Source: Laspinema sp. D2d (lineage in GTDB: Bacteria > Cyanobacteriota > Cyanobacteriia > Cyanobacteriales > Laspinemataceae). From it: 42,223 nucleotides of DNA. Location: contig NZ_JAMXFC010000004.1 in the NCBI RefSeq assembly GCF_025370755.1, positions 39,282-81,504 on the forward strand. Direction: 5' to 3'. The notes below the pieces were generated by a model. That model ran no database searches. It saw only the letters and a list, made by a program, of their open reading frames with translations, and was not told the origin of the DNA. The position numbers and the translations under genes were made by a program. Positions 1 to 38,051 of the stretch are shown one piece after another; position 1 is the first letter of the stretch, and every line of letters begins with the position of its first letter.

Positions 1-110
1 CGTTTCCTCTCCCATATCCCCCCCATCTCCCCCATCTCCCCCATCCCCCCCATCTCCCCCATCTCCCCCACCCTCCCCATCTCTCCCAATTACATCTTTA
101 ATCTCGATCC
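1..110 (+). repeat. C-rich tandem repeat (CCCCATCT / CCCCCATCT units, about 10 copies) immediately 5' of the ORF starting at 125; the opposite strand reads GGGGAGATGGGGG...
   Basis: Read directly: ccccatctcccccatctcccccatccccccatctcccccatctccccc... Related copies at 5851-5905 and 9991-10030. Confidence 0.8.
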
Positions 111-124
111 GATATGGTCTTGTT

Positions 125-1687
125 GTGATTGAATTAGAAGTCCACCAGCAACTCAGAGCATTCCTGCGATCGCAGGGTGAGCCCTATTGGCCGCATCATT
201 TGTCGATGGCGCGGTTAGTGGCCCGTGCGTTTCGGGTGGGTCGTAGTGCGCTAATTCAAACCGGCATCCCTTCCGTCGGTGCTCATGGCGGACATCGCCT
301 CAGTTACTTGACTCCGATCCTAATTTGGCCCGGACCGGCGATTTTAGTCGCCCCAGAAGCAATTCAACAACGATTACTGTTGGTGGAAATCCCCCAGATG
401 CAGCAGTGGATTGAAACCAATAAGACCATTCGCACCGTCACCGATGGGGCTTCGGGCGGTTGGCGGTGGCCCGGTGCGGATTTTCAAGGATTGCTGATTA
501 TTTCCCCGAGATTGTGGTTAGAAGATGTTCTGGGCGATCGCACCAAAATCCCCCCAGGAATTCCCACCATTATTGATGGCGCTGACGACCTAGAATCCTG
601 GGCCAGTGAACAACTCAGCATCACCCTACAATCCTGGGACTGGAATCAACTCATGGTTTCCCGTCCTGATTGTGCCGCGATGATTCGCGATGCCAGGGTA
701 CAACTGACTCGCGCCTTGTTCCAACATCCCGCCAACCCCTACGGATGTTCAATGCTGGAGTCGGAGGAAGAAGAAATCTTACAGGGTCTCTATCACACCT
801 TACAACAGCGCAACTGCACTCCCACCCTACCTAGTAATCCCCCAGAACTGCCCGATCGCTGGATGCACTTTTGGCAGCAGTTTCACAGCGGCAATCGCCT
901 CCTTTGGGCCGCCATTGACCGAAAATTGGGCCAATTTACTCTCTCTGCAACCCCAGTGGAAGTAGCCTCTGCCCTCGGGCCCATTTGGGACCAACAGCCC
1001 ATCGTGTTGATTGGGGGGGCATTAGATTTAGAAACCTCAGCGCCTATTTATCGCCAACAATTGGGATTAGGAGATGTCACAACCCTGAAATTCTCTCCCG
1101 ATCGCCAAAATGAGATGATTCAACTTTATTTACCCGAGGGGATTCCCATGCCGAATACTCCTCAGTTTGAAGCAGCATTATTAGAACAACTCCGAACCCT
1201 ACTTTGTATCGCGGCAACCACTACCGGACCAATTGTGATTCTGGTAGGAGATGTCCCCCTCAAACCCCGCTTAGGGTCAATTTTGGCCGCAGAGTTTGGG
1301 TCTCGGGTGCAGGTAGAAAAGACTCCAATTGATGAACCGAGTATTTTAATTACGGGTTGGGAATTTTGGCGAGAACATCAAGGTACATTACCTCCACCCA
1401 AATTGCTGGCGATCGCCACCTTACCCATTCCCTCTTTAGAAAATCCCTTAGTTGCGGGTCGTGTTGCTCACTACAAACGCGAACGGCAAGACTGGTTTAG
1501 ATTGTATCTATTACCGACTGCCCTGCGAGAACTCCAACGGGCGATCGCGCCCGTTCGTCAACGCCAAGGCATTGTCGCCCTCCTCGATAGTCGCGTCCTT
1601 TACCGCAGCTATGGCACTCAAGTCTTATCCGCCCTCAGTCCCCTCGCCCGCATTGACTATTTAGATGCCACTTCCTTTGTGAATTAA
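125..1687 (+). CDS. conserved cyanobacterial protein, possibly a DinG/Rad3-family helicase-related protein (C-terminal helicase-like region); GTG start
   Basis: 520-aa ORF with uniform codon usage and embedded HIP1 sites. N-terminus VHQQLRAFLR...WPHHLSMARLVARA resembles DinG-like proteins of cyanobacteria. No Walker A motif seen. Confidence 0.55.
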   Translation: MIELEVHQQLRAFLRSQGEPYWPHHLSMARLVARAFRVGRSALIQTGIPSVGAHGGHRLSYLTPILIWPGPAILVAPEAIQQRLLLVEIPQMQQWIETNKTIRTVTDGASGGWRWPGADFQGLLIISPRLWLEDVLGDRTKIPPGIPTIIDGADDLESWASEQLSITLQSWDWNQLMVSRPDCAAMIRDARVQLTRALFQHPANPYGCSMLESEEEEILQGLYHTLQQRNCTPTLPSNPPELPDRWMHFWQQFHSGNRLLWAAIDRKLGQFTLSATPVEVASALGPIWDQQPIVLIGGALDLETSAPIYRQQLGLGDVTTLKFSPDRQNEMIQLYLPEGIPMPNTPQFEAALLEQLRTLLCIAATTTGPIVILVGDVPLKPRLGSILAAEFGSRVQVEKTPIDEPSILITGWEFWREHQGTLPPPKLLAIATLPIPSLENPLVAGRVAHYKRERQDWFRLYLLPTALRELQRAIAPVRQRQGIVALLDSRVLYRSYGTQVLSALSPLARIDYLDATSFVN

Positions 1688-2119
1688 AGGAATTCCAAAC
1701 AATAAAATATCCAAAACGACGAGTTGCAGGCTAATGTGATAGCAGGCTTTCAAGCTTTGGGGTAAGCCGTTTCTCCCCATCGAAGGTAGGAAATTGGTGT
1801 TGTCAGTAACAGCCGACCTCTGGTAGAAAAGGATATAATACGGAATTCGGTTGATAAAAGTCGTTTTTTGATAGCCCGCCTGTGCGCTTTTATACGAAAA
1901 CCGACTTTTATTAACCTGATTTGGTATCAGTTGACATCACTGGCATGGTGTTAAAAAGTAGGAGGAACTAAAAAAGTCTGTTTTGAAGTGGGGACTTCTA
2001 CTTATCCCTTGATTTCCAGGCGTTCTCTCGAAAAGTGAGGAGAACAGATGTGGAACTTTGATTTTGTTTTACCCTAATTTCAAACCTTCCGATATCCGTG
2101 AATTATTCAAGTTTGGAAT

Positions 2120-2686
2120 ATGAAAATACAACGAACAATTTACTGGGACAAGCTGGCCGAGATTGAAGAGTTACAAGAATACTTTCAAAAAGATTTGCCA
2201 CTTTTTCAGAAGATTATGGAAGAGCATACTGAAGAACTCGAAAAATTTTCTGAGCAAACCCTAGATAAATTTAGCAAAATCCGGGCATTAGAAGTGACTA
2301 ATGGTTGCACTCAATGGGGGTTTCGTCGCGGCGATAAAGAATGCTTGTCGATGGAGCAGACTCAGGAATGTATGAACGTAGTTATAGGGTTTATGAAGCG
2401 CACAGAATTATATTTTCCCAGTGAAGGAAAAATTGAATTTGATGAAGCAGAAAAAACATTTCTTCATGCGGCGCGATCGCTTTACCAAAATGCGTTTAAA
2501 AATAACGTCAAAGGCGCAAGACTCGAATTTCACGCCACTTCAACCGCACAATTTATTGTTTTTGGACATGAACGGATGCACCGAGCTATGGCATTAGTGA
2601 AACAAGATTATGAAGAGCTTTTTTCGCCTTTTTATATTGAAAAGGGACAAAAATATATTATGCGCTACTTAAAAGGGTTTGCCTAA
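2120..2686 (+). CDS. hypothetical protein in an AT-rich islet
   Basis: 188-aa ORF with clearly lower GC than its neighbours. It is flanked by about 430-nt and 480-nt non-coding spacers. No recognisable domain. Confidence 0.45.
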   Translation: MKIQRTIYWDKLAEIEELQEYFQKDLPLFQKIMEEHTEELEKFSEQTLDKFSKIRALEVTNGCTQWGFRRGDKECLSMEQTQECMNVVIGFMKRTELYFPSEGKIEFDEAEKTFLHAARSLYQNAFKNNVKGARLEFHATSTAQFIVFGHERMHRAMALVKQDYEELFSPFYIEKGQKYIMRYLKGFA

Positions 2687-3169
2687 ACATCGCCGCCGTG
2701 TAAAACTTTAAGAGGTTTAATCATTAAATCTACCTCTTTAAAAATAATTGAATTCTATAATCAAAGCCGGTGCTTAAATAAGGCAGATGGCCAGCTATAG
2801 CTAATTTTGCTGACATTTTGATAAAAATGGCTGTTAATAGGATACGGATAATGTTCAAACTTTTATCAAGTCGTTATGTAAATCATCGTCTATCCTGATT
2901 CACTCTAGGTTCGGCATCTGTTTAATCCTTTCTATAATTTGAGGTTCTATACAGAGTTGGGGGACTCCTAAACTGTAGAAAATTGAGCCGTTATCAGAAA
3001 TTTTATCAAGTTTTTTCTTACCTCTCCCTGATTTAGAGTGGAGGCCATTCCCGAATGGCCCCTACCGAGTGATTTCCGCTCCTGGGTGACCGATTCATTT
3101 TGTTCAGTGTTTACTAAACGGTTCAAACTTTGCTACAATTGTGAATAAAGCAATTCATCTGGGGCAAAT

Positions 3170-3655
3170 ATGTCCAGAGTCGATAAAGAGGTGCAACAGT
3201 TTGAACTGAGGCGCTTTGTGGAAGAAGTGGGGCTGTTGTTTGAACTGAGTGGAATGCCGAGGATGGCGGGGCGAATTCTCGGGTGGTTGTTGATTGCAGA
3301 CCCTCCGCATCAGTCCCTCAGCGAACTGGCGGAAGCGTTACAGGCTTCTAAAGGGTCGATCAGTACGATGTCTCGGTTGTTGATTCAAGCGGGGATTGTC
3401 GATCGCGTTAGTTTACCGGGCGATCGCCGCGATTATTTTTGTATCAAGTTGGATGCCTGGACCGAATTAATTCAACAAAAAACCGCCCAAATTAAAGCGA
3501 TTCGAGAGATAGCTGAACGGGGACTGGGGTTACTGGAAGGAGAACCGGACCAACGTCGGCAACGACTGGAAGAAATGCGAGATTTTCACGCGTTTTTTGA
3601 AGGGGAACTGCCTCGGTTGAGCCAACGCTGGGAACGTGAACGCCAGGGTGGGTGA
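3170..3655 (+). CDS. GbsR/MarR-family winged-helix transcriptional regulator
   Basis: 161 aa. Motif GMPRMAGRILGWLLIADPP...SLSELAEALQASKGSISTMSRLL is typical of GbsR/MarR_2 regulators. It sits directly upstream of an efflux operon. Confidence 0.7.
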   Translation: MSRVDKEVQQFELRRFVEEVGLLFELSGMPRMAGRILGWLLIADPPHQSLSELAEALQASKGSISTMSRLLIQAGIVDRVSLPGDRRDYFCIKLDAWTELIQQKTAQIKAIREIAERGLGLLEGEPDQRRQRLEEMRDFHAFFEGELPRLSQRWERERQGG

Positions 3656-3756
3656 GTCAATTTAGTCTAAATTGAACCCGCGCTAACGATGCGATCGCCA
3701 TCTGAATCCCCCATAATCCTCGGTCAATCTGTGAGCCTAAATTTTTTAAAAACATC

Positions 3757-5784
3757 ATGAATCCCGGCACCTCTCCATCGGGAAATAGGAGAACCCCAAT
3801 GCAACGGCCATCTCGTGTAGAGCAAGTTACCGACTCTGAAAATAACCATAAAAAGCCGCCCCTACCTTCTCCCAAACCGGATATTAAACCGGAAGGGAAA
3901 CGGCGGTACAAACGGGTAATTATCGCAGCGATCGCCGCTGGATTATTAGGCGTCGGCATCTTCGCCTATAAAACCTACCAAAACGCCCAACCGCGCACCG
4001 ATGCGATCGCCGAAATTACGGTCCCCGTAGACACCCAAACCTTAACCGTCCGCATCCAAGCCAGTGGCACAGTCAGACCCATTCAGAGTGTCAACCTTTC
4101 CCCCAAAACCACAGGCCGGATTGCTCAATTATATGTCGAACAAGGGGACCAAGTAGAAGCAGGTGCCATCATTGCCCGCATGGAAAGTCAGGACGTAGAA
4201 GCCCAAAGACTCCAAGCAATGGCACGAGTAGAACAAGCTCAAGCCCGACTCGCTCAACTGCGCGCCGGAAATCGACCCCAGGAAGTCGCTCAAGCGCGGG
4301 CGAGACTGGCGCAAGCTGAAGCGCGACTCGACCAACTGCGGGCCGGAAATCGGCCCCAGGAGATTCTCCAAGCAAGGGCGAGACTGGCGCAAGCGGAAGC
4401 CCGACTCGACCAACTGCGTGCCGGAAATCGTTCCCAGGAAGTCGCTCAAGCGCGGGCGCGACTGGCGCAAGCGGAAGCCCAACTCGCCCAACTGCGCGCC
4501 GGAAATCGCTCCCAGGAAGTGGGTCAAGCCCGTGCCAGATTGACTCAAGCGCAAGCGCGGTTAGATGCACTGCGTTCCGGGAGTCGGCAAGATGAGATTG
4601 CTCAAGCTCAAACTCAAATTGAAGAAGCGGAGGCTACCTTGTCTCTGACGGCAGAACGAGTGCGCCGGAATCAAGAATTGGTCGATGAAGGGGCAATTTC
4701 TCGCGATCGCTTTGATGAAGTCGTCACAGAAAATCGTCGGGCACAAACCAGTTTAGAGCGATCGCAGCAACGGTTAGAACAACTGATTCGGGCTCGGGAA
4801 GAAGCGATTATCGAAGCTGAAGCCCAAGTCACCGAAGCGCGTCAAGCCCTTGAACTGCAAGCCAGTGGTGCTCGCCCGGAAGAAATAACCCGCGCCGAAG
4901 CGGAAGTTGCGGAAGCGCGCCAAGGATTGGAAATCCAAGAAATCGGTGCTCGCCCGGAAGAAATCACCCGCGCTGAAGCGGAAGTTGCGGAAGCGCGTCA
5001 AGGAGTGGAAATCCAAGAAATCGGTGCTCGCCCGGAAGAAATCACCCGCGCCGAAGCTGAAGTTGCTGAAGCGCGACAAGCCTTATCGGTACAAGAAAGC
5101 GGTGCTAGACCTGAAGAACTCCTACGAGTGGAGGCGGAAGTGCGCGAAGCCGAAGCGCAACTCAAAGCCGTAGAAGTGCAAGTAGAAGATACCATCATTC
5201 GCGCCCCCTTCGCGGGACAAATTACCCAGCGATATGCTACAGAAGGCTCATTTGTCGCCCCAACCACAGCGGCATCCAGTGCGGGAAGTGCGACATCGAC
5301 CTCGATTGTGGCCCTGGCAAGAGGGTTAGAAATTTTAGCTCAAGTCCCGGAAGCGGATATCAGCCGAATTCGCTCGGGTCAACAGGTGGAGATTCGGGCG
5401 GATGCCTATCCCGATGAACGATTTCAAGGAAAGGTGAATTTAATTGCCCCAGAAGCGATTCGGCAACAGGATGTAACGCTGTTTGAGGTGCGGGTCGATT
5501 TGGAATCTGGGATGGAGACGTTGCAATCGGGGATGAATGTAGATGTGACATTTTTAGGGGAGCAATTGGATAATGCTTTAGTAGTTCCGACGGTGGCGAT
5601 CGTCACCAACCGAGGGGAAACCGGGGTGTTGATTCCTGATGCAGAAGGTAAGGCGGAATTTCGTCCGGTGACGATTGGACCAACCTTGGGGAATCAAATT
5701 CAAATTTTGGAGGGTTTGAATCCAGGCGATCGCGTGTTTATTGGTCTTCCAGAAGGGCAAAAGTTGGAGGATATTTTAAATTAA
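3757..5784 (+). CDS. HlyD/DevB-family membrane-fusion (periplasmic adaptor) protein with an expanded coiled-coil
   Basis: N-terminal basic region plus one TM helix (VIIAAIAAGLLGVGIFAY). A very long Ala/Gln/Arg-rich coiled coil with RAGNRPQE hairpin motifs. A C-terminal beta-barrel/lipoyl-like region (IIRAPFAGQI..., VVPTVAI). The true start may be the Met at 3799. Confidence 0.85.
   Translation: MNPGTSPSGNRRTPMQRPSRVEQVTDSENNHKKPPLPSPKPDIKPEGKRRYKRVIIAAIAAGLLGVGIFAYKTYQNAQPRTDAIAEITVPVDTQTLTVRIQASGTVRPIQSVNLSPKTTGRIAQLYVEQGDQVEAGAIIARMESQDVEAQRLQAMARVEQAQARLAQLRAGNRPQEVAQARARLAQAEARLDQLRAGNRPQEILQARARLAQAEARLDQLRAGNRSQEVAQARARLAQAEAQLAQLRAGNRSQEVGQARARLTQAQARLDALRSGSRQDEIAQAQTQIEEAEATLSLTAERVRRNQELVDEGAISRDRFDEVVTENRRAQTSLERSQQRLEQLIRAREEAIIEAEAQVTEARQALELQASGARPEEITRAEAEVAEARQGLEIQEIGARPEEITRAEAEVAEARQGVEIQEIGARPEEITRAEAEVAEARQALSVQESGARPEELLRVEAEVREAEAQLKAVEVQVEDTIIRAPFAGQITQRYATEGSFVAPTTAASSAGSATSTSIVALARGLEILAQVPEADISRIRSGQQVEIRADAYPDERFQGKVNLIAPEAIRQQDVTLFEVRVDLESGMETLQSGMNVDVTFLGEQLDNALVVPTVAIVTNRGETGVLIPDAEGKAEFRPVTIGPTLGNQIQILEGLNPGDRVFIGLPEGQKLEDILN
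4258..4569 (+). repeat. in-frame 78-nt (26-aa) tandem repeat, 4 copies (LRAGNRPQEVAQARARLAQAEARLDQ), inside the membrane-fusion gene
   Basis: Units begin at 4258, 4336, 4414 and 4492 with more than 85 % nucleotide identity. Confidence 0.85.
4867..5178 (+). repeat. second in-frame 78-nt (26-aa) tandem repeat family, 3 full copies plus 1 diverged (GARPEEITRAEAEVAEARQGLEIQEI), inside the membrane-fusion gene
   Basis: Units begin at 4867, 4945 and 5023 and are nearly identical. A fourth copy at 5101 is diverged. Confidence 0.85.
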
Positions 5785-5850
5785 AGGGGATTGTCTCATA
5801 GTAAAGACCTAAACTGTGCATTAGCCATTTAAGCCCTAGGTCACGAAGTA

Positions 5851-5905
5851 TATCTCCCCCATTCTCCCCATCTCCCCAATTCTCCCCATCCTCCCTATCC
5901 TCACA
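5851..5905 (+). repeat. C-rich polypyrimidine repeat (CTCCCCA-type) 5' of the permease gene
   Basis: tctcccccattctccccatctccccaattctccccatcctccctatcctc lies immediately upstream of the ATG at 5918. Confidence 0.7.
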
Positions 5906-5917
5906 CTCAAAAAAAAC

Positions 5918-7135
5918 ATGAACTTCTTAGAAAGCGTAAAAATGGCATCAAAAACCCTAGTTGCCAATAAAATGCGAAGTGGTCTAACGATGCTAGGGAT
6001 TATTATTGGCAATGCGTCGGTGATTGCGACGATTGGGATGGGTGAGGGTGCTCAAAATTTTGTGGGTCAGCAGGTGGAATCTTTGGGGACGAATTTGTTA
6101 TTTATTGTGCCGGGAAGTCCCAAGGCTCAAACTCGTCCGGTAAGTTCTCCTCAGACATTGGTGTTAGCTGATGCGGAGGCGATCGCCTCTCAAGTTACCT
6201 TGGTAAAGGAAGTATCGCCGCAAATCACTGGGATGCAGCGCGTTACCTACGGCAATACCAATCAATCCACAACGGTTGTTGGCGTGACGCCGGAGTTTTT
6301 GACCGTCCGGAGTTTTGATGTGGCTCAAGGTCGATTTATTACGAACTTGGATTTAAAACGCAATGAACAGGTAGTCGCATTAGGTGCAGATGTTGCAGAA
6401 ACTTTGTTTGGAAATACTGACCCGATTGGGAAACAAATCCGCATTAAAAATGTATCATTTTCGGTGATCGGCGTGATGCAACCCAAGGGTTCTACATTTG
6501 GACAGAACCAAGATGATGTAGTGTTGGTACCGTTAACGACGATGGCGAATCGAATTACGGGGAATACGTCACCCTATGGGACGAGAATTAATTTTATTTC
6601 CGTGTCGGTGCAGAATGAGGAGAGCATGAGGGCGGCACAGTTCCAAATTGAGAATTTGCTGCGACTGCGACATCAGATTATTGATGAAGATGATTTTACG
6701 GTGCGCAATCAGAAGGATTTACAGGCAACAATGGGGGCAATTACGGGGGCGTTAACGTTGTTGTTAGCAGCGGTTGCTAGTATTTCCCTGTTTGTTGGGG
6801 GGATTGGGATTATGAATATTATGTTAGTTTCAGTGACGGAACGCACAAAGGAAATTGGATTGAGAAAGGCGATCGGGGCATCTCAGCAGGATATTTTAAT
6901 GCAGTTTGTGATTGAAGCGGTGATTTTATCCGTTGCTGGGGGTTTGGTGGGAATTTTTGTCGGGGTAAGTGGAATTCTGCTGATTGGGAGTTTAACCCCC
7001 TTTGATGCGGGCGTTTCTACGATGGCGATCGCCTTAGCAACCGGCGTATCTGGGGCAACGGGGTTATTCTTTGGAGTGATTCCCGCTAAAAAAGCCGCTC
7101 AACTTGATCCGATTGTCGCCTTGCGCGGTGCTTAA
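5918..7135 (+). CDS. ABC-transporter permease, MacB/DevC-like (MacB periplasmic domain plus FtsX 4-TM domain); no fused ATPase
   Basis: 405 aa. One N-terminal TM helix, a large periplasmic domain, and C-terminal FtsX-like helices (GGIGIMNIMLVSVTERTKEIGLRKAIGA). Co-oriented 134 nt downstream of the membrane-fusion gene. Confidence 0.85.
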   Translation: MNFLESVKMASKTLVANKMRSGLTMLGIIIGNASVIATIGMGEGAQNFVGQQVESLGTNLLFIVPGSPKAQTRPVSSPQTLVLADAEAIASQVTLVKEVSPQITGMQRVTYGNTNQSTTVVGVTPEFLTVRSFDVAQGRFITNLDLKRNEQVVALGADVAETLFGNTDPIGKQIRIKNVSFSVIGVMQPKGSTFGQNQDDVVLVPLTTMANRITGNTSPYGTRINFISVSVQNEESMRAAQFQIENLLRLRHQIIDEDDFTVRNQKDLQATMGAITGALTLLLAAVASISLFVGGIGIMNIMLVSVTERTKEIGLRKAIGASQQDILMQFVIEAVILSVAGGLVGIFVGVSGILLIGSLTPFDAGVSTMAIALATGVSGATGLFFGVIPAKKAAQLDPIVALRGA

Positions 7136-7206
7136 TAAAACCTAGAGCGGTGAGAACTCCTATCCTGCTACGAGTTGGACAGTTGGAATTTTAATCTTTG
7201 CTCTTC

Positions 7207-8193
7207 TTATAATAGATTTTGCTGTTTAATTTGAACAGCTAATTCCTGAATCATCGGAATGCAAACTGAATTACCAATCTGTTTATAGCATTCTCCGATA
7301 CTAGGATGTTTTTTGAAGTTATCGGGAAATCCCATAATTCGATAACACTCATTTAGGGTTAATTTCCGCACCGCATTTTCTTCAGGAATGTAAATAAAAA
7401 ATCGGCCTGATGTTTCCTGGGAGGGTAAGGTTGGATGAACCCCTTTCACGGAATAAATGCGATTAGGTTGTCTATGAACTCTGGATAGATGTTCTGTATT
7501 GGGCCTAATTCCGGTTTTCCAGATATTTTTATTACGATACCCGACAAAAATTAAGCCTGAAGTTTGGGGTTTAGGATGTTCGATTAACGTGTATTCATCC
7601 GGCTTCAAATACTCAAAATGTCCTTGTTTATCTAAATATACTTCAAGGCTAGGGGGAGAAAATTGTTTCGAGATTAAATCAAAATTAAACTTTTGATTTA
7701 AAGTACCAATAATAATAACCCGCTCTCGATTTTGGGGTAAATTGAAATCTTTAGCATTCAATAAACTATAAGTAACGCAATAACCTAAATCTTCTAAGGA
7801 ATAAAGAATTGTATCTAATACTTTGCCTTGGTCAAGATGAAGGAGGTGCTTAACATTTTCCAAGACAATCACTTGAGGTTTTTTTATTTCAATGATTTTG
7901 CATAAGTGAAAAAATAGGGTTCCTCGCGTATCCTTAAACCCATTTCGTTTTCCAGATATACTAAAAGGCTGACAAGGGAAACCCGCTGTTAGCACATCGT
8001 GATTTGGGATGTTTTTAATATCTAAAGTCGTAATATCTTTTTCCGGTAACTCCCCAAAATTTTGATAATAAACTTTCTGGCAAGCGTCATTAATTTCACA
8101 AGAGTAAACACAATGATAGCCTGCTTTTTCAAAGGCAAGACGGAATCCTCCAATTCCAGCAAATAAGTCAATAAATTTAATTGAATCAGTCAC
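7207..8193 (-). CDS. DNA (cytosine-5)-methyltransferase (Dcm/type II m5C MTase), apparently orphan
   Basis: Motif I FIDLFAGIGGF, motif IV FPCQPFS and motif VI ENV are all present in canonical order. The gene is strongly AT-rich compared with its flanks. Confidence 0.9.
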   Translation of the reverse strand: MTDSIKFIDLFAGIGGFRLAFEKAGYHCVYSCEINDACQKVYYQNFGELPEKDITTLDIKNIPNHDVLTAGFPCQPFSISGKRNGFKDTRGTLFFHLCKIIEIKKPQVIVLENVKHLLHLDQGKVLDTILYSLEDLGYCVTYSLLNAKDFNLPQNRERVIIIGTLNQKFNFDLISKQFSPPSLEVYLDKQGHFEYLKPDEYTLIEHPKPQTSGLIFVGYRNKNIWKTGIRPNTEHLSRVHRQPNRIYSVKGVHPTLPSQETSGRFFIYIPEENAVRKLTLNECYRIMGFPDNFKKHPSIGECYKQIGNSVCIPMIQELAVQIKQQNLL

Positions 8194-8434
8194 TAATTTT
8201 AAAATTGAATTAAATGGAGTTTTAACAATTATAGAATATAACCTATAGAAATTGCAGGAGTGTGGGAGTGGGACGCTGTTGGATGCGGCGAAACAAGCTA
8301 CGAAACTGGATCCGGTTGTTGCCTTTGGGAGTGTCTTGGGTGTTTATCTGATTCACACTTTGTCTATAAACTAAAAGCGATCGCTCTTTTGTTTTGAGTA
8401 GCGATCGCTTGTTTATTTTTATAATCACAGGATT

Positions 8435-8737
8435 TTAAGAGCTTTTACTAATTACTCGGAGGTGTCCCCAAAAATCTACATACCGCACATTCGAGTTGGC
8501 GGATACCCGCACTGAACCCATGCTTAGGGCCATTTGCTTTACAATTCTTAACTCTTCAGGATATCGCGGTTGGGGGTCATTTTCTAACCAAATCGGGGGG
8601 ACCATCATGGGATCGTAGGCTGCAATGGTATCGATGACGCCGGGTCGGTCCTTGAACTGTACCTGCTGTCCCGGGTGAAAAACTACCGCTTCTTCTTGTT
8701 CTAGGTCCTTATCAAATCCAATTGTTACAGCAACCAT
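8435..8737 (-). CDS. hypothetical protein
   Basis: 100-aa ORF in the AT-rich islet. No recognisable domain. Confidence 0.35.
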   Translation of the reverse strand: MVAVTIGFDKDLEQEEAVVFHPGQQVQFKDRPGVIDTIAAYDPMMVPPIWLENDPQPRYPEELRIVKQMALSMGSVRVSANSNVRYVDFWGHLRVISKSS

Positions 8738-9228
8738 AAATTTCTCCTTATATCTTTGTATTTTTATTTAGACTAACCTTTTTTGGTCAAGGTTTGCTAA
8801 AAAATACAAAAATTGTTACAAACTTGACAGAAAAATAAAATTCTTCCTAAATCACCCTGTTGAATCTATCTCTGGGTAGGTGTAAATGGTGAATCCCAAG
8901 CCCCAAAACTCAAGGAAATTAAGGGTTTGAGCCGTTGACGGACCGAATTAGTGTTTGGGTTAATGTGGATTAACGCAGCCATTTTATCGCCAGAAGTATT
9001 ACCCCAGGGTTGTTTTAGGGATTCTAACAAGACTGAGTTAGTAATAATCTGGAAAAATTATTAAGGTTAGGAGGGTTTGGGAGAAAATAGCAACAAAAGT
9101 TGCCCCTCAATTAAGTAATTCTGCTTAAGTATAAATTCTTATTGAGTTCAAAATATCCCAGTTAACAAGGCAGTATTGATCCTAAATTTCAGTAAATAAG
9201 TAAATAGACTTACGGCCTATAAAAATAA

Positions 9229-9260
9229 GGGAGGGACATCGCTTAAGCGGTGTCCCTCCC
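9229..9260 (-). terminator. rho-independent terminator for the ExoD gene (14-bp stem, TTAA loop, T-run on the minus strand)
   Basis: gggagggacatcgc ttaa gcggtgtccctccc. On the minus strand it is followed by ttatttttat. It lies about 85 nt after the ExoD stop. Confidence 0.6.
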
Positions 9261-9343
9261 TTTCCCGTAAAAATCACGTGTTAAATCCTGGGAGTCAAAG
9301 CAGGCATTTTCTAAAGGGGAGACTGCTTTTGAATCAAACCGAG

Positions 9344-10084
9344 TTACTGAGCCAGCCAATTTTGGATGAGGTCCAGCAAGCTAGAACCGCCGAACCAAAG
9401 AGCCATCAAAATAGAGGTTGAGAGAATAAATCCCATCACACAAACCACTAACCCACCCAGGGTAATGGCTCCATCATCATCCAGTAAGCCAAAGCCAGTC
9501 ACGAAAATACCCATTGCTGGTAAGGTATTGGTCCCTGGGATGGGAATCATCATCGAAATTGCCATCAGGGCGATCGCACTGCCAATGACCACTCGACCCG
9601 GTAAACTTTTGCAGATATAGGTCAAGCGGGGACGAGACAGCAACTCAATTTTTTCCAACCAGGGAATCCCAGCTTTTAAAATGCCTTGGACCTTCGATAA
9701 GGCGATCGGGTGATTCATAACCTTATTCGGCATCCAAGGACGTTGAGCGCCAGCAATCAACTGAACCGCTAGGATAAAAATAACAATTCCAAATGGAGTC
9801 GAGTATCCAGGAGCCGGTACGGGCAAGGCTGAAGGTAACGACAAGAAGACAAACAAAAATCCAAAAATGCGTTCTCCAGCCAAGAGGATAATATCCGCTA
9901 AAATTACGCCTTCGGAACGTTCTTCGTCAAAAAAATAGCGATGCAATTCAACAGAAAGTCGAGCCACAGGGTTTAGGTGAAAGGTGAGATGAGGGAAATG
10001 GGGGAGGGGAGATGGGGGAGATGGGGAGAATCGGAAGAGCAGGAAGAAGGATTGTTCCTGTCTTTCTAGTCCCCCCTTTGGCAA
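9344..10084 (-). CDS. exopolysaccharide synthesis protein ExoD family (membrane protein); true start probably the GTG near 9966
   Basis: ExoD-like core ADIILLAGERIFGFLFVFLSLPSALPVPAPGYSTPFGIV...AGAQRPWMPNK. The first roughly 40 codons of the long ORF are encoded by the poly-G/C repeat and a hairpin, so they are unlikely to be translated. Confidence 0.7.
   Translation of the reverse strand: MPKGGLERQEQSFFLLFRFSPSPPSPLPHFPHLTFHLNPVARLSVELHRYFFDEERSEGVILADIILLAGERIFGFLFVFLSLPSALPVPAPGYSTPFGIVIFILAVQLIAGAQRPWMPNKVMNHPIALSKVQGILKAGIPWLEKIELLSRPRLTYICKSLPGRVVIGSAIALMAISMMIPIPGTNTLPAMGIFVTGFGLLDDDGAITLGGLVVCVMGFILSTSILMALWFGGSSLLDLIQNWLAQ
9991..10030 (-). repeat. C-rich (on minus) tandem repeat, same family as 1-110 and 5851-5905, in the 5' region of ExoD
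   Basis: The plus strand reads gagggaaatgggggaggggagatgggggagatggggagaa. Confidence 0.7.
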
Positions 10085-10092
10085 GGGGGGGT
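10071..10092 (-). terminator. GC hairpin (9-bp stem CCCCCCCTT/AAGGGGGGG) downstream of ahcY; candidate terminator
   Basis: ccccccctt tggc aaggggggg is a perfect inverted repeat 76 nt after the ahcY stop. No clear U-tract follows. Confidence 0.4.
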
Positions 10093-10167
10093 TAGGGGAG
10101 GTGTCTCTTCAGAATTTTGGCAGAAATTTATATCTTGTCCTTCCTCAAAGAAGACAACCCGATAATT

Positions 10168-11484
<1,317 letters not shown>

Positions 11485-11727
11485 CTACCTTACTCTATCG
11501 TTCCCTAGGCTGGGGAGGCCGATCGCCAGATTTGTTCTGGAGATCTTGCAATTGCGCTTCCGCTGGCGTTTCTATGTCCTCCGGTGAGGAGTCTTTTGGA
11601 GTGGACCATTGTAGTTTTTCCCGCAGGATGCCGGAATCTCAATGGGTCCCTCAGAGTCAGGATTCACAGGATCCATGACAGGGCGAACTTCCCTTAGTTT
11701 CCCCCCTTGCCTACAAAAAATCATGTT

Positions 11728-15809: not shown

Positions 15810-16586
15810 GTGCAATTCATGGGGGATAGGTTACTCAAAATGGCTAAAGATAAACCAGAGAATTCAGCAGCTTTACACAACACTACAGGAGTAGAAACCA
15901 TGTCTAAGAAAGCGACAATTTCCGTATTTGGAACCAAGCCCGAAAATGCCATTGTTGTTCCTGAGTTACCGATTTCTGCCAAAAACAATTGTCAGGCGGG
16001 GAAATGGACGATTGGAGATGAAGAATATGGATCTAAGTTAGCTATGACTATCCTCAAATTCAGTAAGTTTTATGGGAGTTTGGGGCAGACTAAAAATACT
16101 TTGTGGGGACAAATTTGGTTTGTGGCCGAAGGGGGAGAACTGCCCCATGATGTGGTGATGGTTACCTATGTTAAAGGCCGCAGTCTCAGTGATTTTAATC
16201 GGCTAGTTGCTTCGGTGCAGGCGCGAGGAGTTGAACCGGCAGAAGGAGTATTTGTTCCTGATTTCATCAAGCATTCAGGACAAAAGCCCGATGAGAATGG
16301 GGTGATTAAACCGATTAATTATTATAGCCTGAAATGGGACTGGATTGAACGGTCAAATTGGGAGATGGTGGAACAAGCGGCGATCGTCTTGTCTGATCCC
16401 CAAAATCTGAGTCGGATGATTGACTTGGAAGGAACTCGGGAAATGATTTGTTTGGATAATCTACCTCCGGCTGAAATTGCTTGTTTGATGGCAGCGCATT
16501 TGGAGGGTCCAACTTCGGGAGATATGGCATTGCCTGCGGCAGTTTCTCATGATTTGATGCGGGAACCTGCGCTTGCTAATGGTTAA
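15810..16586 (+). CDS. hypothetical protein (258 aa; start may be the Met at 15900)
   Basis: Compact ORF 5 nt after the previous stop. No recognisable domain. Confidence 0.55.
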   Translation: MQFMGDRLLKMAKDKPENSAALHNTTGVETMSKKATISVFGTKPENAIVVPELPISAKNNCQAGKWTIGDEEYGSKLAMTILKFSKFYGSLGQTKNTLWGQIWFVAEGGELPHDVVMVTYVKGRSLSDFNRLVASVQARGVEPAEGVFVPDFIKHSGQKPDENGVIKPINYYSLKWDWIERSNWEMVEQAAIVLSDPQNLSRMIDLEGTREMICLDNLPPAEIACLMAAHLEGPTSGDMALPAAVSHDLMREPALANG

Positions 16587-16692
16587 TTAGACTGTTGCAA
16601 AATATGGGAGAGATCCCCCCAACCCCCCTTAAGAAGGGGGGCTTTTTAGAAATTTGCAAGGAGTCTATTGAGTCGGATAAAACAACGGGGAG

Positions 16693-21393: not shown

Positions 21394-22161
21394 ATGACCT
21401 ATTGCTTAGGTATCCTCACCCGTTTTGGTTTAGTGATCGCCGCTGATTCGCGTACCAATGCCGGAGTTGATCATATTTCCACTTACCAAAAATTGTTTGA
21501 TTTTTCCGTACCCGGAGATCGAACTATTCTGTTATGTACCTCGGGAAATTTATCTATAACCCAAGGAGCGATCGCTGCCTTAGAGCAAGATATTAAACAT
21601 CAAGAAGAAATCAATCTTCATACCCTCCCTAGTTTGACCGAAGTCGCTCGTTATATCGGCAATAAAATCCGCGCTATCCAAGATCAGGATAGACCTTGGT
21701 TAGAACGCGATCGCATCGATTATAAATGTAGTATATTACTGGGCGGTCAAATTAGGGGAGAAGAACCTAATCTGTATTTAATTTACAGTCAGGGAAACTT
21801 CATTCATGCCACCAAAGAAACGCCCTTTCTCCAAATTGGAGAAACTAAATATGGTAAACCTCTCTTAGACCGCACCCTCACCGCAAATACTCCCTTAGAA
21901 GCTGCTGCAAAATGTGCCTTGCTCTCCATCGATTCTACCATGAAATCTAATATTTCCGTAGGACCGCCCATTGATATTATCATGTACCATACAGATTCCT
22001 TCGCCATCCGCCATCGGTTGAGATTGAGACTCGGCGATCCCTATCTAGCTAAAATTAGAAAATTATGGGAAATCTACGTTAAACAAGCCTTTGATGAGAT
22101 GCCAGATGTGGAATGGGAATATGATGAAGAGGAGGTAAAAGAAGATATTCTGATTGACTAA
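21394..22161 (+). CDS. Anbu (ancestral beta-subunit) proteasome-like Ntn-hydrolase
   Basis: Begins MTYCLGI, so a Thr is exposed after Met removal. Proteasome beta-subunit-like fold length (255 aa). Adjacent to alpha-E and circularly permuted ATP-grasp genes, as in Anbu operons. Confidence 0.7.
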   Translation: MTYCLGILTRFGLVIAADSRTNAGVDHISTYQKLFDFSVPGDRTILLCTSGNLSITQGAIAALEQDIKHQEEINLHTLPSLTEVARYIGNKIRAIQDQDRPWLERDRIDYKCSILLGGQIRGEEPNLYLIYSQGNFIHATKETPFLQIGETKYGKPLLDRTLTANTPLEAAAKCALLSIDSTMKSNISVGPPIDIIMYHTDSFAIRHRLRLRLGDPYLAKIRKLWEIYVKQAFDEMPDVEWEYDEEEVKEDILID

Positions 22162-22273
22162 AGGGAATTACCACCAAGGGAAGAACATTCGTAGTAACGA
22201 CTGAAGTCGTTTCCTCATGACTTAGCCACTCTAAGTCACGAGGATTCACCCCATCTAACCCATCTTTAAACAA

Positions 22274-23296
22274 TCAAGACCCGATCGCCGTCTGAGTTTG
22301 CGTCTGAGTCTGAATGGAAGCAATAGGTTTAATTTCCTCCACTATCTCTACAGCGGGTTCAAGAGCAAAATAAGTATTAAAAATACTCTGACCCACGCCA
22401 TTGAGTTGCTCTTGCAGGGTATTAATAAACTCATGTAAACCCGTTTCAAAAATATCGGCAATGGTCATATATTCTAATTGCGATCGCAACCGACCTAAAG
22501 CCCGTTCTGCCGGGTCTCTCCAAGTTCCCACCGGAGTTCCAGTAATTTCATGAAGCGATCGTTCCGCATTCACAAAACAAAACCGAATTGAGCGCGGAAA
22601 ATCTCGATCCATAATCAAAAACTCCGCCACTAGCGTGGGATTAATCCGATGCTGGCGCTTCCGGTACATCTCATAAGCACTCGCCGATCGCAATAACGAC
22701 ATCCATTGAATTTCATCCAGGGTCGTTCCCACATCATAGACCGACGGCAGCAAAATATAATACTTTACATCCAAAATCCGAGAAGTTTTATCTGCACGTT
22801 CCAACAGTCGGCCAATATGTCCAAAATGCCACCCTTCATTATGGGTCATTGTCGCATCCATGATGCCTGAAAACAAGTGACTTGCCAATTTAACCTGGGT
22901 AAAAAAATCATGGAGAGAGGCTAAATTTTGTTTCGGTGCAGCCTCTTTCACCATCATATAAAAGGCATTGACCTGTTCCCACATTTCCGAAGAAATCACT
23001 TCTCGGACCGATCGCGCATTCTCCCGGGCGATTTGTAAGCAAGATAAAATCGAATTGGGGTAATCGCGATCGAAGGCCAAAAATTGAATCACATTTTCTG
23101 GTAGCACTTCCCCATATCGTTCTTGAAACAGGGGTGAATCTCCCGTGATTTTCACCAAGGGATCCCATTGTTGGCTCATCCCCGTGGGAGAATCCAGAAT
23201 TAAATTGAGATTAACATCAATGAAACGGGCAATATTTTCCGCCCGTTCTACATAACGATTCAGCCAATAAATTGAATGTGCAACGCGACTCAGCAT
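22274..23296 (-). CDS. alpha-E domain (DUF403) protein
   Basis: N-terminus MLSRVAHSIYWLNRYVERAENIARFIDVN is the hallmark of alpha-E proteins encoded beside circularly permuted ATP-grasp enzymes. Confidence 0.8.
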   Translation of the reverse strand: MLSRVAHSIYWLNRYVERAENIARFIDVNLNLILDSPTGMSQQWDPLVKITGDSPLFQERYGEVLPENVIQFLAFDRDYPNSILSCLQIARENARSVREVISSEMWEQVNAFYMMVKEAAPKQNLASLHDFFTQVKLASHLFSGIMDATMTHNEGWHFGHIGRLLERADKTSRILDVKYYILLPSVYDVGTTLDEIQWMSLLRSASAYEMYRKRQHRINPTLVAEFLIMDRDFPRSIRFCFVNAERSLHEITGTPVGTWRDPAERALGRLRSQLEYMTIADIFETGLHEFINTLQEQLNGVGQSIFNTYFALEPAVEIVEEIKPIASIQTQTQTQTAIGS

Positions 23297-23449
23297 GAGA
23301 ATTTTTAGAGTTTAAAGTTGAGAATTTTGAGTGTTTTAACCTGAGACAGTCATGCTTGGAAACCCGCGCCAAATTCCAAGGGTTCAGCGGTTGGCTGTCA
23401 GGAATGTCCCTCCCTCTCACCCCTCAATCCTGACGCTTAACCCCGTCGT

Positions 23450-24883
23450 TTATTCCGTCACGACCCAAGTATCTTTACTCCCCCCGCCTTGGGAAGAATT
23501 AACTACTAAAGACCCTCGTTTTAAGGCAACCCGAGTTAATCCACCGGGGTTAACATAGATATCTTTGCCATAGAGGATATAGGGTCTCAAATCGACGTGA
23601 CAGCCTTCAATATGGCTATCAACTAACGTAGGAACCCGAGACAGGCAGAGGGTAGGTTGGGCGATATAATTGCGGGGATTGGCGCGAATGCGATCGGCAA
23701 AATCCTCTCGTTGTTCTGCTGTCGCTTGAGTACCAATTAACATCCCATACCCGCCCGATTCATTCGCCGCCTTGACTACCAATTGATCCAAATTAGCCAA
23801 CACATGATCTAAATGTTTGGGATTCCCACATAAATAAGTCGGAACATTGGGAATAATTTGGTCTTCTCCCAGATAATATCGAATCATCTCCGGGACAAAA
23901 GCATAAATTGCCTTGTCATCGGCAACACCCGTTCCCAAAGCATTAGCAATACCCAATCGACCCGATCGATAAACCTCCATCAAACCCGGTACACCTAACA
24001 AAGAATCCGGGCGAAATGCGAGAGGATCAATAAAATCATCATCAATCCGACGATAGACCACATCAACGCGCTTTAGCCCCTTCGTCGTCCGCATTTGCAA
24101 GTAGCCATCGGCAACGACTAAATCCTTCCCTTCCACCAGTTCTACCCCCATTTGCTGGGCTAGAAATGAATGTTCAAAGTAGGCCGAATTATAAATTCCG
24201 GGGGTAATCACCACCACATTGGGATCGGGTAAATTATCCGGGGCGAGATTGAGTAACGTTTCTAACAGATAACTGGGATATTCATCAACAGGTTGAATAT
24301 CCATCGTTCTAAAAACTTGGGGGAATGTACTTTTCATCACCCGCCGGTTTTCTAAAACGTAGGAAACCCCTGAAGGACATCGCAAATTATCTTCTAAAAC
24401 ATACCACTGCCCATCTTTGTCTCGGACTAAATCAGTGCCCGTGATGTGACACCAAATTCCCTTGGGCGGTTTTAACCCGATGCAAGGTTTCAGAAATCCT
24501 TTAGCCGACTGAACCAATTCGAGAGGAATGACCCCATCTTTAATGATTTTTTGGTCCCCATAAATATCAGCAATAAATAGATTTAAAGCTTCAATTCGTT
24601 GCTTCAGTCCACGATTGAGAGTGGCCCATTCGTTCGCTGCTACAATACGGGGAATAATGTCAAATGGAAAAATTCGCTCGTTGCCTTCGCTATCCCCATA
24701 AACCGTAAAGGTAATCCCCAGCTTAAACATGGCGCTTTGTGCCGCCTGTTGTCGCTGGAGAAGTTCTCCATCGGATAGAGAATTGATTCTGTCTATCAAG
24801 GGGTTCGCCTGGGGGCGAGGTTTTCCCTTCTCGATAAACAGTTCATCGTAAAAATCGCCTGGATCGTATGTGTCAAATCGCAC
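23450..24883 (-). CDS. circularly permuted type-2 ATP-grasp protein (DUF404/DUF407 amidoligase)
   Basis: 477 aa with N-terminal [16 protein letters not shown]. Family-typical length and position upstream of alpha-E. Confidence 0.8.
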
Positions 24884-37322: not shown

Positions 37323-38051
37323 TTACTGTAAAAAGCCTCCTTGATAGAAATAATAGGTCGCCATTGGGATAACCGTCGCGAGGACTAACAGGACGATCAC
37401 CACCATTGTGGCATTGCCTGTATCGGTTTCTTCGGCGGTGGCAAAGGTGCGTTCAATGTTCAAGCTGGTATCGATAATCGGGGGTCCGGGGTCCGGTTGA
37501 CCGGAAAGGACGGCAATCATGCGATCGCTAACATCGGTTAAAGCTTGATTGTATTTATCCCCCTCTCGCAAGGGGACTTGCAGGGTTTCTTGGGCGACAC
37601 TTTCAGCAATTTCCGGGGTTAAGAGGGATTTGATGTCATCTCCCGTCCGGATGGCGGAATTATTTGTGAGGGTATCGACCACCACTAAGGTTTGATGCGC
37701 CCCTTCCTCTGGGGTTGGAAACCATTTTTCAAAGAGTTTTTCGGTAAAACTGTCAATGGTTTCCCCATAGTCTAGGCGGCGAATGGTGACGAGACGAACT
37801 TCGTTGCCGGTGTCTTTTTGCAGGGCACTAAGGGCCTTGCTGAGATTGCCTTCGGTAAGGCGACTGAGGACTTCGGCATCATCAATGGTCCAGGTGCGAT
37901 CGCCTGCATGGAGAATCGGCATTTGATAGACCCCAGTTGCCGCAGCGGGTGCCACTGCCACGAGGGTTGCTAAGGCGATCGCCGCGATGGATAACAGGAG
38001 TCCGGTGAATCCGGCTTTCCAGGGGGTGATTCGTTGAAGGATCTGTTTCAT
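37323..38051 (-). CDS. TPM-domain protein (TLP18.3/Psb32-like lumenal phosphatase family) with signal peptide and C-terminal TM anchor
   Basis: Signal-like N-terminus, central TPM-like region, C-terminal helix MVVIVLLVLATVIPMATYYF. Confidence 0.6.
   Translation of the reverse strand: MKQILQRITPWKAGFTGLLLSIAAIALATLVAVAPAAATGVYQMPILHAGDRTWTIDDAEVLSRLTEGNLSKALSALQKDTGNEVRLVTIRRLDYGETIDSFTEKLFEKWFPTPEEGAHQTLVVVDTLTNNSAIRTGDDIKSLLTPEIAESVAQETLQVPLREGDKYNQALTDVSDRMIAVLSGQPDPGPPIIDTSLNIERTFATAEETDTGNATMVVIVLLVLATVIPMATYYFYQGGFLQ

Follow-up and report, generated by a model that had tools for sequence, protein, structure and literature searches.

Three tandem arrays of one C-rich nonamer lie just upstream of unrelated genes in a 42,223-nucleotide (nt) stretch of the genome of Laspinema sp. 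D2d (contig NZ_JAMXFC010000004.1, positions 39,282 to 81,504), the whole of which is referred to here as the window. The repeat reads (TCTCCCCCA)n on its C-rich strand and (TGGGGGAGA)n on the complement, and across genomes it is a dispersed, hypervariable nonamer with strand-dependent placement and in-frame intragenic copies. We consider it probable that the three tracts are copies of a hypervariable simple-sequence repeat (SSR), prone to form G-quadruplexes (G4) and i-motifs and tolerated where the transcript allows it, and that they do not constitute a dedicated regulatory element.

Three nonamer arrays upstream of unrelated genes

All three arrays are intergenic and have a period of nine, as seen by direct reading and with Tandem Repeats Finder. 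Array 1 (5-90, plus strand) touches the left edge of the window and consists of approximately nine units of TCTCCCCCA or TCCCCCCCA, the C-rich strand being the sense strand for a DinG-like gene. Tandem Repeats Finder calls it at 8-88 with the consensus TCTCCCCCA, 9.0 copies and 81% matches, or 90% matches when it is read as a superunit of period 27; because it starts at the window edge, its length can be given only as at least nine units. Array 2 (5852-5908, plus strand) has about five to six units (TCTCCCCCA, TTCTCCCCA and TCCTCCCTA) within the 133-nt spacer between the gene for an HlyD-type membrane-fusion protein and that for a MacB/DevC-type ABC permease, and is called at 5852-5902 as approximately five units of TTCTCCCCA or TCCTCCCTA. 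Array 3 (9981-10031) comprises about five diverged units located 14 nt upstream of the GTG codon at 9967 with which ExoD starts; in its call at 9982-10026 the plus strand reads GGGGAGATG, hence the C-rich strand is the minus strand. The outer coordinates given here are also those of a composition-based scan, which found no further array in the whole 42-kb window. With up to two mismatches, CCCCATCTCCCC is matched 27 times in the window compared with 5.2 ± 2.4 times in shuffled sequences, none of 100 shuffles reaching 27, and all exact matches fall inside the three array sites.

A first-pass annotation of this DNA had described three copies of the same C-rich repeat, each followed within about 15-25 nt by the start of a gene for which the C-rich strand is sense. 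The arrays are indeed real and of one dispersed repeat type, and the strand assignment is correct for all three. Array 1, however, ends near 90 and not at 110, and the genes start close by but at measured distances of 36 nt (GTG 125), 9-15 nt (ATG 5918) and 14 nt (GTG 9967). In relatives the DinG-like gene encodes 530 amino acids (aa) and starts 10 codons further upstream, at an ATG; the window has ATC (101-103) at this position, 12 nt from array 1, and unless a non-canonical start is used the open reading frame (ORF) can only begin at GTG 125 (520 aa). By direct reading, none of the three gaps between array and start contains GGAG, GAGG or AGGA. Judging from gene order, array 2 is probably intercistronic and not promoter-proximal.

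Turnover of the arrays at orthologous sites

Syntenic loci were fetched by way of permease homologues from relatives whose permeases are 93-97% identical to that of the window (97% in Laspinema sp. D1, 95% in Oscillatoria acuminata). They derive from Laspinema sp. D1 (L114), Phormidium pseudopriestleyi (L115 and L116), Oscillatoria sp. HE19RPO (L117), metagenomes (L118 and L119) and Kamptonema (L120). In the HlyD-permease spacer, the approximately five units of the window correspond to about 16 units in L114, where the spacer is 267 nt long, and to about four units in L118 and L119, followed there by about 11 units of an unrelated heptamer (GACCAAT or GACAAAT) that run up to the permease ATG. 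The same spacer holds only inverted heptamer arrays in L117, a decayed pyrimidine remnant in P. pseudopriestleyi (L116 of the pair L115/L116) and no array in L120. Upstream of the DinG-like gene, the window has at least nine units, L114 two, and L119 only a CTCCCCC seed, that is, zero units. Upstream of ExoD, the approximately five diverged units of the window are matched by five to seven diverged units in L114, L118 and L115/L116, and the arrays in four lineages all end at a conserved TTCACCTAAACCCTGTG.

Unit number thus varies at one intergenic locus among close relatives. The position of an array is inherited and its content and length are volatile, which is the behaviour of an SSR and not of a conserved signal. 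Furthermore, one and the same spacer hosts different repeat families in near-identical genomes, which points to repeat-permissive hot spots adjoining start and stop codons.

Other repeats occur at the same sites. The heptamer arrays in the HlyD-permease spacer are of the STRR-like TTGGTCA/GACCAAT type (L118:2830-2950, L119:5990-6112 and L117:3376-3548), and the two inverted arrays of L117 could form a long hairpin. Upstream of the DinG-like gene, L114 (4552-4953) and L119 (1-350) carry a tandem array of an approximately 32-nt, palindrome-containing unit (GAACGACTGAAGTCGTTACTACGAAC...), and inverted copies lie beyond it on the upstream side. The place expected for this array coincides with the start of the window, whose left end is therefore probably a contig or assembly break within repeats.

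Distribution across genomes and in-frame copies

The exact 21-mer CCCCATCTCCCCCATCTCCCC, scanned in one genome per species, was found at a minimum of 113 genome loci, which hold 129 arrays of 27-207 nt. Ascertainment was by this one 21-mer in genomes and by one 22-mer in metagenomes, and all counts derived from them, here and below, apply among the matches listed. The named organisms are all cyanobacteria of many orders, except for one metagenome-assembled genome (MAG) of the acidobacterium Granulicella (L094); one locus is labelled Sericytochromatia, and the loci whose label is 'uncultured bacterium' abound in HIP1 (GCGATCGC), a motif characteristic of cyanobacterial genomes that has a density of 1.66 per kb in the window. 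The taxa include Nostoc, Calothrix, Rivularia, Coleofasciculus, Laspinema, Oscillatoria, Kamptonema, Tychonema, Nodosilinea, Elainella, Spirulina and Pseudanabaenales. Different lineages have their own characteristic variant units: Laspinema carries TCCTCCCCA, Coleofasciculus TCTTCCCCA and Nostoc 8-mers. A BLAST search of the window against the 113 pattern loci listed found no near-identical locus, and look-ups of the exact DinG-like and permease proteins of the window, and of the homologue from Oscillatoria acuminata, gave no match. Fourteen of the 129 arrays coincide with a contig end, among them those at L017, L018, L027, L031, L039, L041, L076, L078, L085, L086, L098, L100 and L109. In a scan of viral contigs, the motif was also found in 11 IMG/VR contigs (L121-L131), including a giant-virus MAG and 350-kb contigs, and 10 of these 11 lack HIP1. 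The motif is thus not confined to cyanobacteria.

The unit of 9 nt equals three codons and is frame-neutral, unlike a heptamer, so arrays also occur in frame inside proteins. Long ORFs read through 17 of 125 arrays (approximately 14%); the G strand is then nearly always translated to (GGD)n and the C strand to (SPP)n or (LPH)n. Inserts confirmed with Pfam to lie in frame inside real proteins (L001:4897-4982, L042:3768-3802, L073:3480-3540 and L092:3962-4002) affect RecJ, a CbiG-methylase fusion, the HATPase_c domain of a hybrid histidine kinase and a thiamine-pyrophosphate (TPP) enzyme. The insert in RecJ sits between DHH and DHHA1 and adjoins a second, (SSP)n repeat.

The occurrence of an identical unit in genomes of Nostocales, Oscillatoriales, Coleofasciculales, Leptolyngbya-like lineages, Spirulina and Pseudanabaenales, with filamentous taxa almost exclusively represented among the matches listed, would be expected if the nonamer were the footprint of a mobile or templated process, in which a MITE-like element (miniature inverted-repeat transposable element) or a retroelement- or telomerase-like addition spread it across lineages. 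We regard this as extremely unlikely. No inverted repeats, as would be expected at the ends of a MITE, flank the three window arrays. Across 110 arrays the decay of units shows no polarity (0.43 compared with 0.38 degenerate units, Wilcoxon p=0.69), no gene recurs next to the arrays, and orthologous sites differ by unit number only, with arrays growing from a CTCCCCC seed. The variant units, moreover, differ by lineage, as local evolution predicts.

Strand-dependent placement relative to genes

Placement was scored for the arrays of the 113 loci listed after removal of flank-duplicates, which left 108 arrays between genes and 17 within them. The genes of these loci were called crudely (arrays masked, then greedy non-overlapping ORFs of at least 100 aa), and distances to starts are lower bounds. 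Orientation as such is balanced, with 43 arrays facing a start in the C-sense orientation (C-rich strand as sense strand) and 44 in the G-sense orientation, and 29 compared with 32 between co-oriented gene pairs. Distance, on the other hand, depends on the strand. Arrays lie within 50 nt of a start in 15 of 43 C-sense cases and in 5 of 44 G-sense cases (Fisher p=0.011), and within 50 nt of a stop in 32 of 47 G-sense cases and in 9 of 42 C-sense cases (Fisher p=1.5e-5). An independent replicate came from a metagenome scan with the variant 22-mer CCCCATCCTCCCCATCCTCCCC. This 22-mer is not specific to cyanobacteria; 89 of the 120 contigs listed (L132-L251) are HIP1-poor or shorter than 1.5 kb, and the replicate was restricted to 31 HIP1-rich contigs. 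Here, 8 of 15 C-sense arrays and 0 of 9 G-sense arrays are close to starts (p=0.0095), 7 of 9 G-sense and 4 of 14 C-sense arrays are close to stops (p=0.036), and co-oriented gene pairs hold 10 C-sense and 3 G-sense arrays.

The commonest niche is that of a G-sense array immediately 3' of a stop codon (the 32 of 47 above). The start-proximal C-sense arrangement accounts for approximately 14% of intergenic arrays family-wide, and its share is possibly higher in the Laspinema lineage than phylum-wide. The arrangement of the three window arrays is one of these two favoured niches.

The first-pass annotation took this placement to be non-random and read it as a recurring 5'-untranslated-region (UTR) or promoter-proximal element. 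Non-randomness is borne out by the excess of C-sense arrays near starts (15/43 compared with 5/44) and by its replication (8/15 compared with 0/9); what a survey of orientation and position over the 113 listed loci brings out is a distance to starts that depends on strand, without an overall strand bias. A recurring element of that kind does not follow, given that orientation is not fixed (43 compared with 44), that the G-sense, post-stop position is the commonest, that 17 of 125 arrays are intragenic and that unit number ranges from 0 to approximately 16. The counter-explanation named at the time, a simple-sequence expansion specific to this locus, is essentially correct as to the simple sequence and incorrect as to the locus.

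Relation to known repeat families

G4-forming heptamer SSRs, GGGGA(C/T)T in Nostoc sp. PCC 7120 and GGGAATC in Xanthomonas, were described by Rehm et al. (2015, PLoS One, PMC4692102) as dispersed, mostly intergenic and variable in length between relatives, with G4 and i-motif formation shown in vitro and no function assigned. They sit either upstream of an ORF, no more than 50 bp away and with the G-rich strand non-coding, or at most 50 bp beyond a stop, where the G-rich strand is coding (PMC4692102). The nonamer obeys the identical strand-dependent rule. It too consists of short head-to-tail units, each with a run of at least three G, forming at least four consecutive G-tracts for which quadruplexes are predicted, and its G-run or C-run arrays are dispersed, mostly non-coding (108 intergenic compared with 17 intragenic), often located between co-oriented genes, strongly variable in length at conserved loci and without a link to gene function class. 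The differences lie in the unit, which is the 9-nt GGGGGAGAT and neither GGGGA(C/T)T nor GGGAATC, and which is frame-neutral and appears in proteins as (GGD)n or (SPP)n; in the hosts, which span many non-heterocystous filamentous orders; and in the G4 and i-motif structures, which are predicted here whereas those of the heptamers were observed in vitro. Because the unit is not a heptamer, we file the repeat outside the described heptamer families, as a unit variant. The supplementary G4 tables of Rehm et al. for PCC 7120 contain only one degenerate GGGGGAGAT-like tract, so the nonamer is essentially missing from that strain and was not part of that work. The published placement rule for G4-prone bacterial repeats is thereby extended from heptamers to a frame-neutral nonamer, and to many non-heterocystous filamentous cyanobacteria. 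We found no paper describing the nonamer, in a literature search whose incomplete coverage makes this absence no proof of novelty, and a full-text search for literal nonamer strings returned only unrelated primer or barcode matches.

The STRR heptamers (CCCCAGT, TTGGTCA) were reportedly described from heterocystous cyanobacteria by Mazel et al. in 1990. Like the nonamer, they are dispersed short tandem repeats of cyanobacteria and include a unit containing C4/G4, and an STRR-like TTGGTCA array occupies the HlyD-permease spacer in L117-L119; the nonamer differs in its 9-nt unit and in its Laspinema-like Oscillatoriales host, STRR being classically a feature of heterocystous strains. The TAACTGA direct repeats of Beggiatoaceae and some cyanobacteria, in their 'forward' orientation, end a few nt before starts that lack a ribosome-binding site (RBS) and show whole-unit insertions and deletions between strains (MacGregor 2015, Front Microbiol, PMC4679880). 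The nonamer resembles them in abutting starts, in overlapping the RBS position of genes without a Shine-Dalgarno (SD) motif and in its whole-unit indels. TAACTGA, in contrast, is an unrelated heptamer, rich in A/T, whose forward frames contain stop codons; it has no G4 potential, and in Microcystis its orientation is mixed.

Unit-number instability near gene starts is likewise a property of the phase-variable SSRs of Neisseria and Haemophilus, and it raises the prospect that the arrays are contingency loci, in which gain or loss of 9-nt units alters promoter or leader spacing and stochastically switches the downstream gene. Copy number does differ strongly between close relatives, arrays sit between upstream signals and start codons, and the 14 of 129 listed arrays that end contigs suggest long or heterogeneous arrays. 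The Neisseria and Haemophilus repeats, however, have units of 1-5 nt (or 7 nt) that shift the reading frame or the -35/-10 spacing of surface-antigen genes, whereas steps of 9 nt are frame-neutral, the window arrays lie outside coding sequence and the genes are unrelated and housekeeping-like, not surface or antigen genes, a point that Rehm et al. (PMC4692102) likewise raised against phase variation. The 14-36 nt directly before each start would be unaffected by unit changes, and the permease array is inside a likely operon. A scan of 1-11600 for consensus promoters and terminators found no more sites than in shuffled sequences and none at the arrays, and no promoter-like hexamers flank or span them, so the idea of altered promoter spacing is unsupported. 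Unit changes would therefore shift neither the reading frame nor a -35/-10 spacing at these sites, and we consider phase variation very unlikely.

Predicted structure and proposed mechanism

The G-rich strands of arrays 1, 2 and 3 contain 10, 5 and 5 runs of at least three G, respectively, with run lengths of 3-7. ViennaRNA with G-quadruplex energies predicts -63, -29 and -31 kcal/mol for these strands, compared with 0 to -6 kcal/mol without quadruplexes, and it predicts the C-rich sense leader to be unpaired. With at least five G-runs on every G strand, this modelling agrees with the earlier annotation of the repeat as prone to form G4 and i-motifs by sequence. The mRNA in the window would have the C-rich sequence, so that a G4, if one forms, would be located on the template strand of the DNA. 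An Rfam scan of the window matched no family, a tRNA scan of the window found none, and no conserved flank composition was found beside the arrays.

These features could be read as those of a dedicated cis-regulatory element, in which the C-rich tract, acting as an i-motif or template-strand G4 or as a binding site for a factor such as S1 or a poly(C)-binding protein, sets downstream transcription or SD-independent translation. Each of the three window arrays is C-sense and has, at a distance of 9-36 nt, a start without a Shine-Dalgarno motif, the enrichment of C-sense arrays near starts is significant and replicated, the position of the ExoD array is conserved in four lineages, G4 are predicted on the template strand, and G4 in E. 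coli are reported to activate or repress expression according to position (discussed in PMC4692102). We nevertheless judge such an element unlikely. At the same site, unit number ranges from 0 to approximately 16 among relatives whose permeases are 93-97% identical, and an unrelated heptamer array can replace the nonamer in the HlyD-permease spacer. Only about 14% of the intergenic arrays listed are so placed; a larger number follow stops with the opposite strand as sense, and 14% of arrays lie within genes. The genes concerned have unrelated functions, and for the analogous heptamers no regulatory role was found by Rehm et al. (PMC4692102). A conserved cis-regulatory RNA or 5'-UTR element is also at odds with the variable orthologous spacers, the predicted lack of structure in the leader and the lack of an Rfam match in the window. 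There is no sign of a specific regulatory signal.

For the preferred reading, that of a tolerated SSR, the following mechanism can be proposed. Arrays most likely grow and shrink by whole units at fixed intergenic sites, through replication slippage or unequal recombination, and the formation of G4 or i-motifs on unwound DNA probably promotes the gain and loss of units. The two strands would then meet different fates in RNA. C-rich RNA contains neither GGAG nor ATG and is predicted to lack structure; it would be tolerated at the end of a 5' leader or in an intercistronic spacer. G-rich RNA would present GGAG-N9-ATG pseudo-start sites every 9 nt together with RNA quadruplexes; it would for that reason be barred from leaders and would be harmless after a stop. 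All three window arrays occupy the C-sense leader niche, where they would lengthen a pyrimidine leader free of Shine-Dalgarno motifs and place a G4-prone tract on the template strand, with an effect that is likely passive or weakly modulatory.

Several points weigh against this account. Slippage, G4 formation in vivo and the avoidance of pseudo-RBS are steps that we infer. Independent slippage would not obviously yield an identical unit in several cyanobacterial orders, and this recurrence could hint at a sequence-specific process or function. In four lineages the array upstream of ExoD lies at the same position and is of roughly similar length, which is compatible with some constraint. All three window arrays are start-proximal and C-sense, for which the chance probability is p≈0.002-0.003 at a family-wide rate of approximately 12-14%, and tandem gene pairs in the replicate set show a trend towards C-sense (10 compared with 3). 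The recurrence across orders, the position of the ExoD array and the uniform arrangement in the window keep the competing explanations alive.

A further reading would treat the nonamer as a phylum-wide, strand-specific signal at the RNA level in filamentous cyanobacteria, which are Rho-less and often Shine-Dalgarno-less. C-rich RNA before starts would recruit ribosomes, for example via S1, for SD-independent initiation; G-rich RNA after stops would form quadruplexes that end or stabilise transcripts; and the number of units would tune expression. If true, this would explain both the retention of the same 9-nt unit across orders and the confinement of each orientation to its own end of the spacer. 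We rate it as distinctly unlikely. Should placement reflect function and not tolerance, the arrays would offer a cheap natural handle on SD-independent translation and 3'-end formation in cyanobacteria.

Consequences for gene calling and assembly

The nonamer is open in six frames, and it creates false N-terminal extensions and false gene fusions. At the ExoD gene (9344-9967, minus strand, Pfam ExoD), translation from GTG 9967 gives 207 aa, and the Pfam ExoD profile begins at residue 4 of this form. A longer, 246-aa ORF from TTG 10084 is a read-through of array 3, which is open in all six frames. In orthologues the called length is 207 aa, with one relative annotated at 234 aa. From the conserved upstream anchor to the GTG, the distance is 72, 77, 68 and 68 nt in four lineages; these lengths differ such that the frame is not preserved, which rules out a coding reading of the array upstream of ExoD. 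The first-pass annotation was therefore right to attribute the N-terminal extension of this ORF to the repeat. The nonamer also breaks short-read cyanobacterial assemblies, as illustrated by the 14 of 129 listed arrays that end a contig, and the window itself starts inside one.

Other features of the window

The genes flanking the arrays have the following assignments by Pfam. The DinG-like gene (125-1687, plus strand, 520 aa from GTG 125) has a weak match to Helicase_C_2 and is followed by a MarR gene (3170-3655, plus strand). The gene for the HlyD-type membrane-fusion protein (3757-5784, plus strand) is the cistron upstream of the permease gene (5918-7135, plus strand; MacB_PCD and FtsX). 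A Dcm methylase gene (7207-8193, minus strand) precedes ExoD on the map, and the S-adenosylhomocysteine hydrolase (SAHH) gene (10168-11469, or 10168-11445 in its shorter form, minus strand; 425 aa in relatives) lies upstream of ExoD on the same strand. Further genes encode GUN4, peptidoglycan-binding proteins, a pentapeptide protein, aspartate kinase, a glycosyltransferase and an RTX protein, among others, and the rest of the window is ordinary chromosome.

The HlyD-type gene contains two blocks of in-frame 78-nt (26-codon) tandem repeats in its coiled-coil region, at 4234-4607 and 4867-5150. Its orthologues are 635, 661 and 675 aa long, which suggests that the length of the hairpin varies by whole 78-nt repeats. 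Adjoining the Dcm-type C5 cytosine methylase gene is a conserved 100-aa ORF (8435-8737, minus strand) without a Pfam match; the pair (block 7207-8737) is syntenic in every relative fetched except Kamptonema (L120) and may represent a small restriction-modification or Vsr-like module.

Between the SAHH stop and array 3 lies a GC-rich hairpin of the form CCCCCC-loop-GGGGGG (10066-10095, minus strand), which is terminator-like, without a T-run, and conserved in relatives. GC hairpins of C6-7, a short loop and G6-8 recur at 10066-10103 (minus strand) and 16613-16650 (plus strand), shortly 3' of the stops of the SAHH gene and of the ORF at 15810-16586. Each is preceded by a second C-run (TAACCCCCCC or ATCCCCCCAA), and the hairpin at 16613-16650 is followed by TTTTT. 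They are kept in L114 and L115, where one is duplicated, and are likely to be terminators with an alternative pairing partner.

Further along the window, a gene for a proteasome-type subunit (plus strand) lies beside Alpha-E and circularly permuted ATP-grasp genes (minus strand) at 21394-24883. The RTX (HemolysinCabind) gene (40766-42157, minus strand) carries 162-nt internal tandem repeats at 41061-41406 and ends approximately 65 nt before the right edge of the window. At 37481-37496, Tandem Repeats Finder reports a tiny G-rich heptamer array, GGGGTCC × 2.3, which may be the seed of another G-run repeat family.

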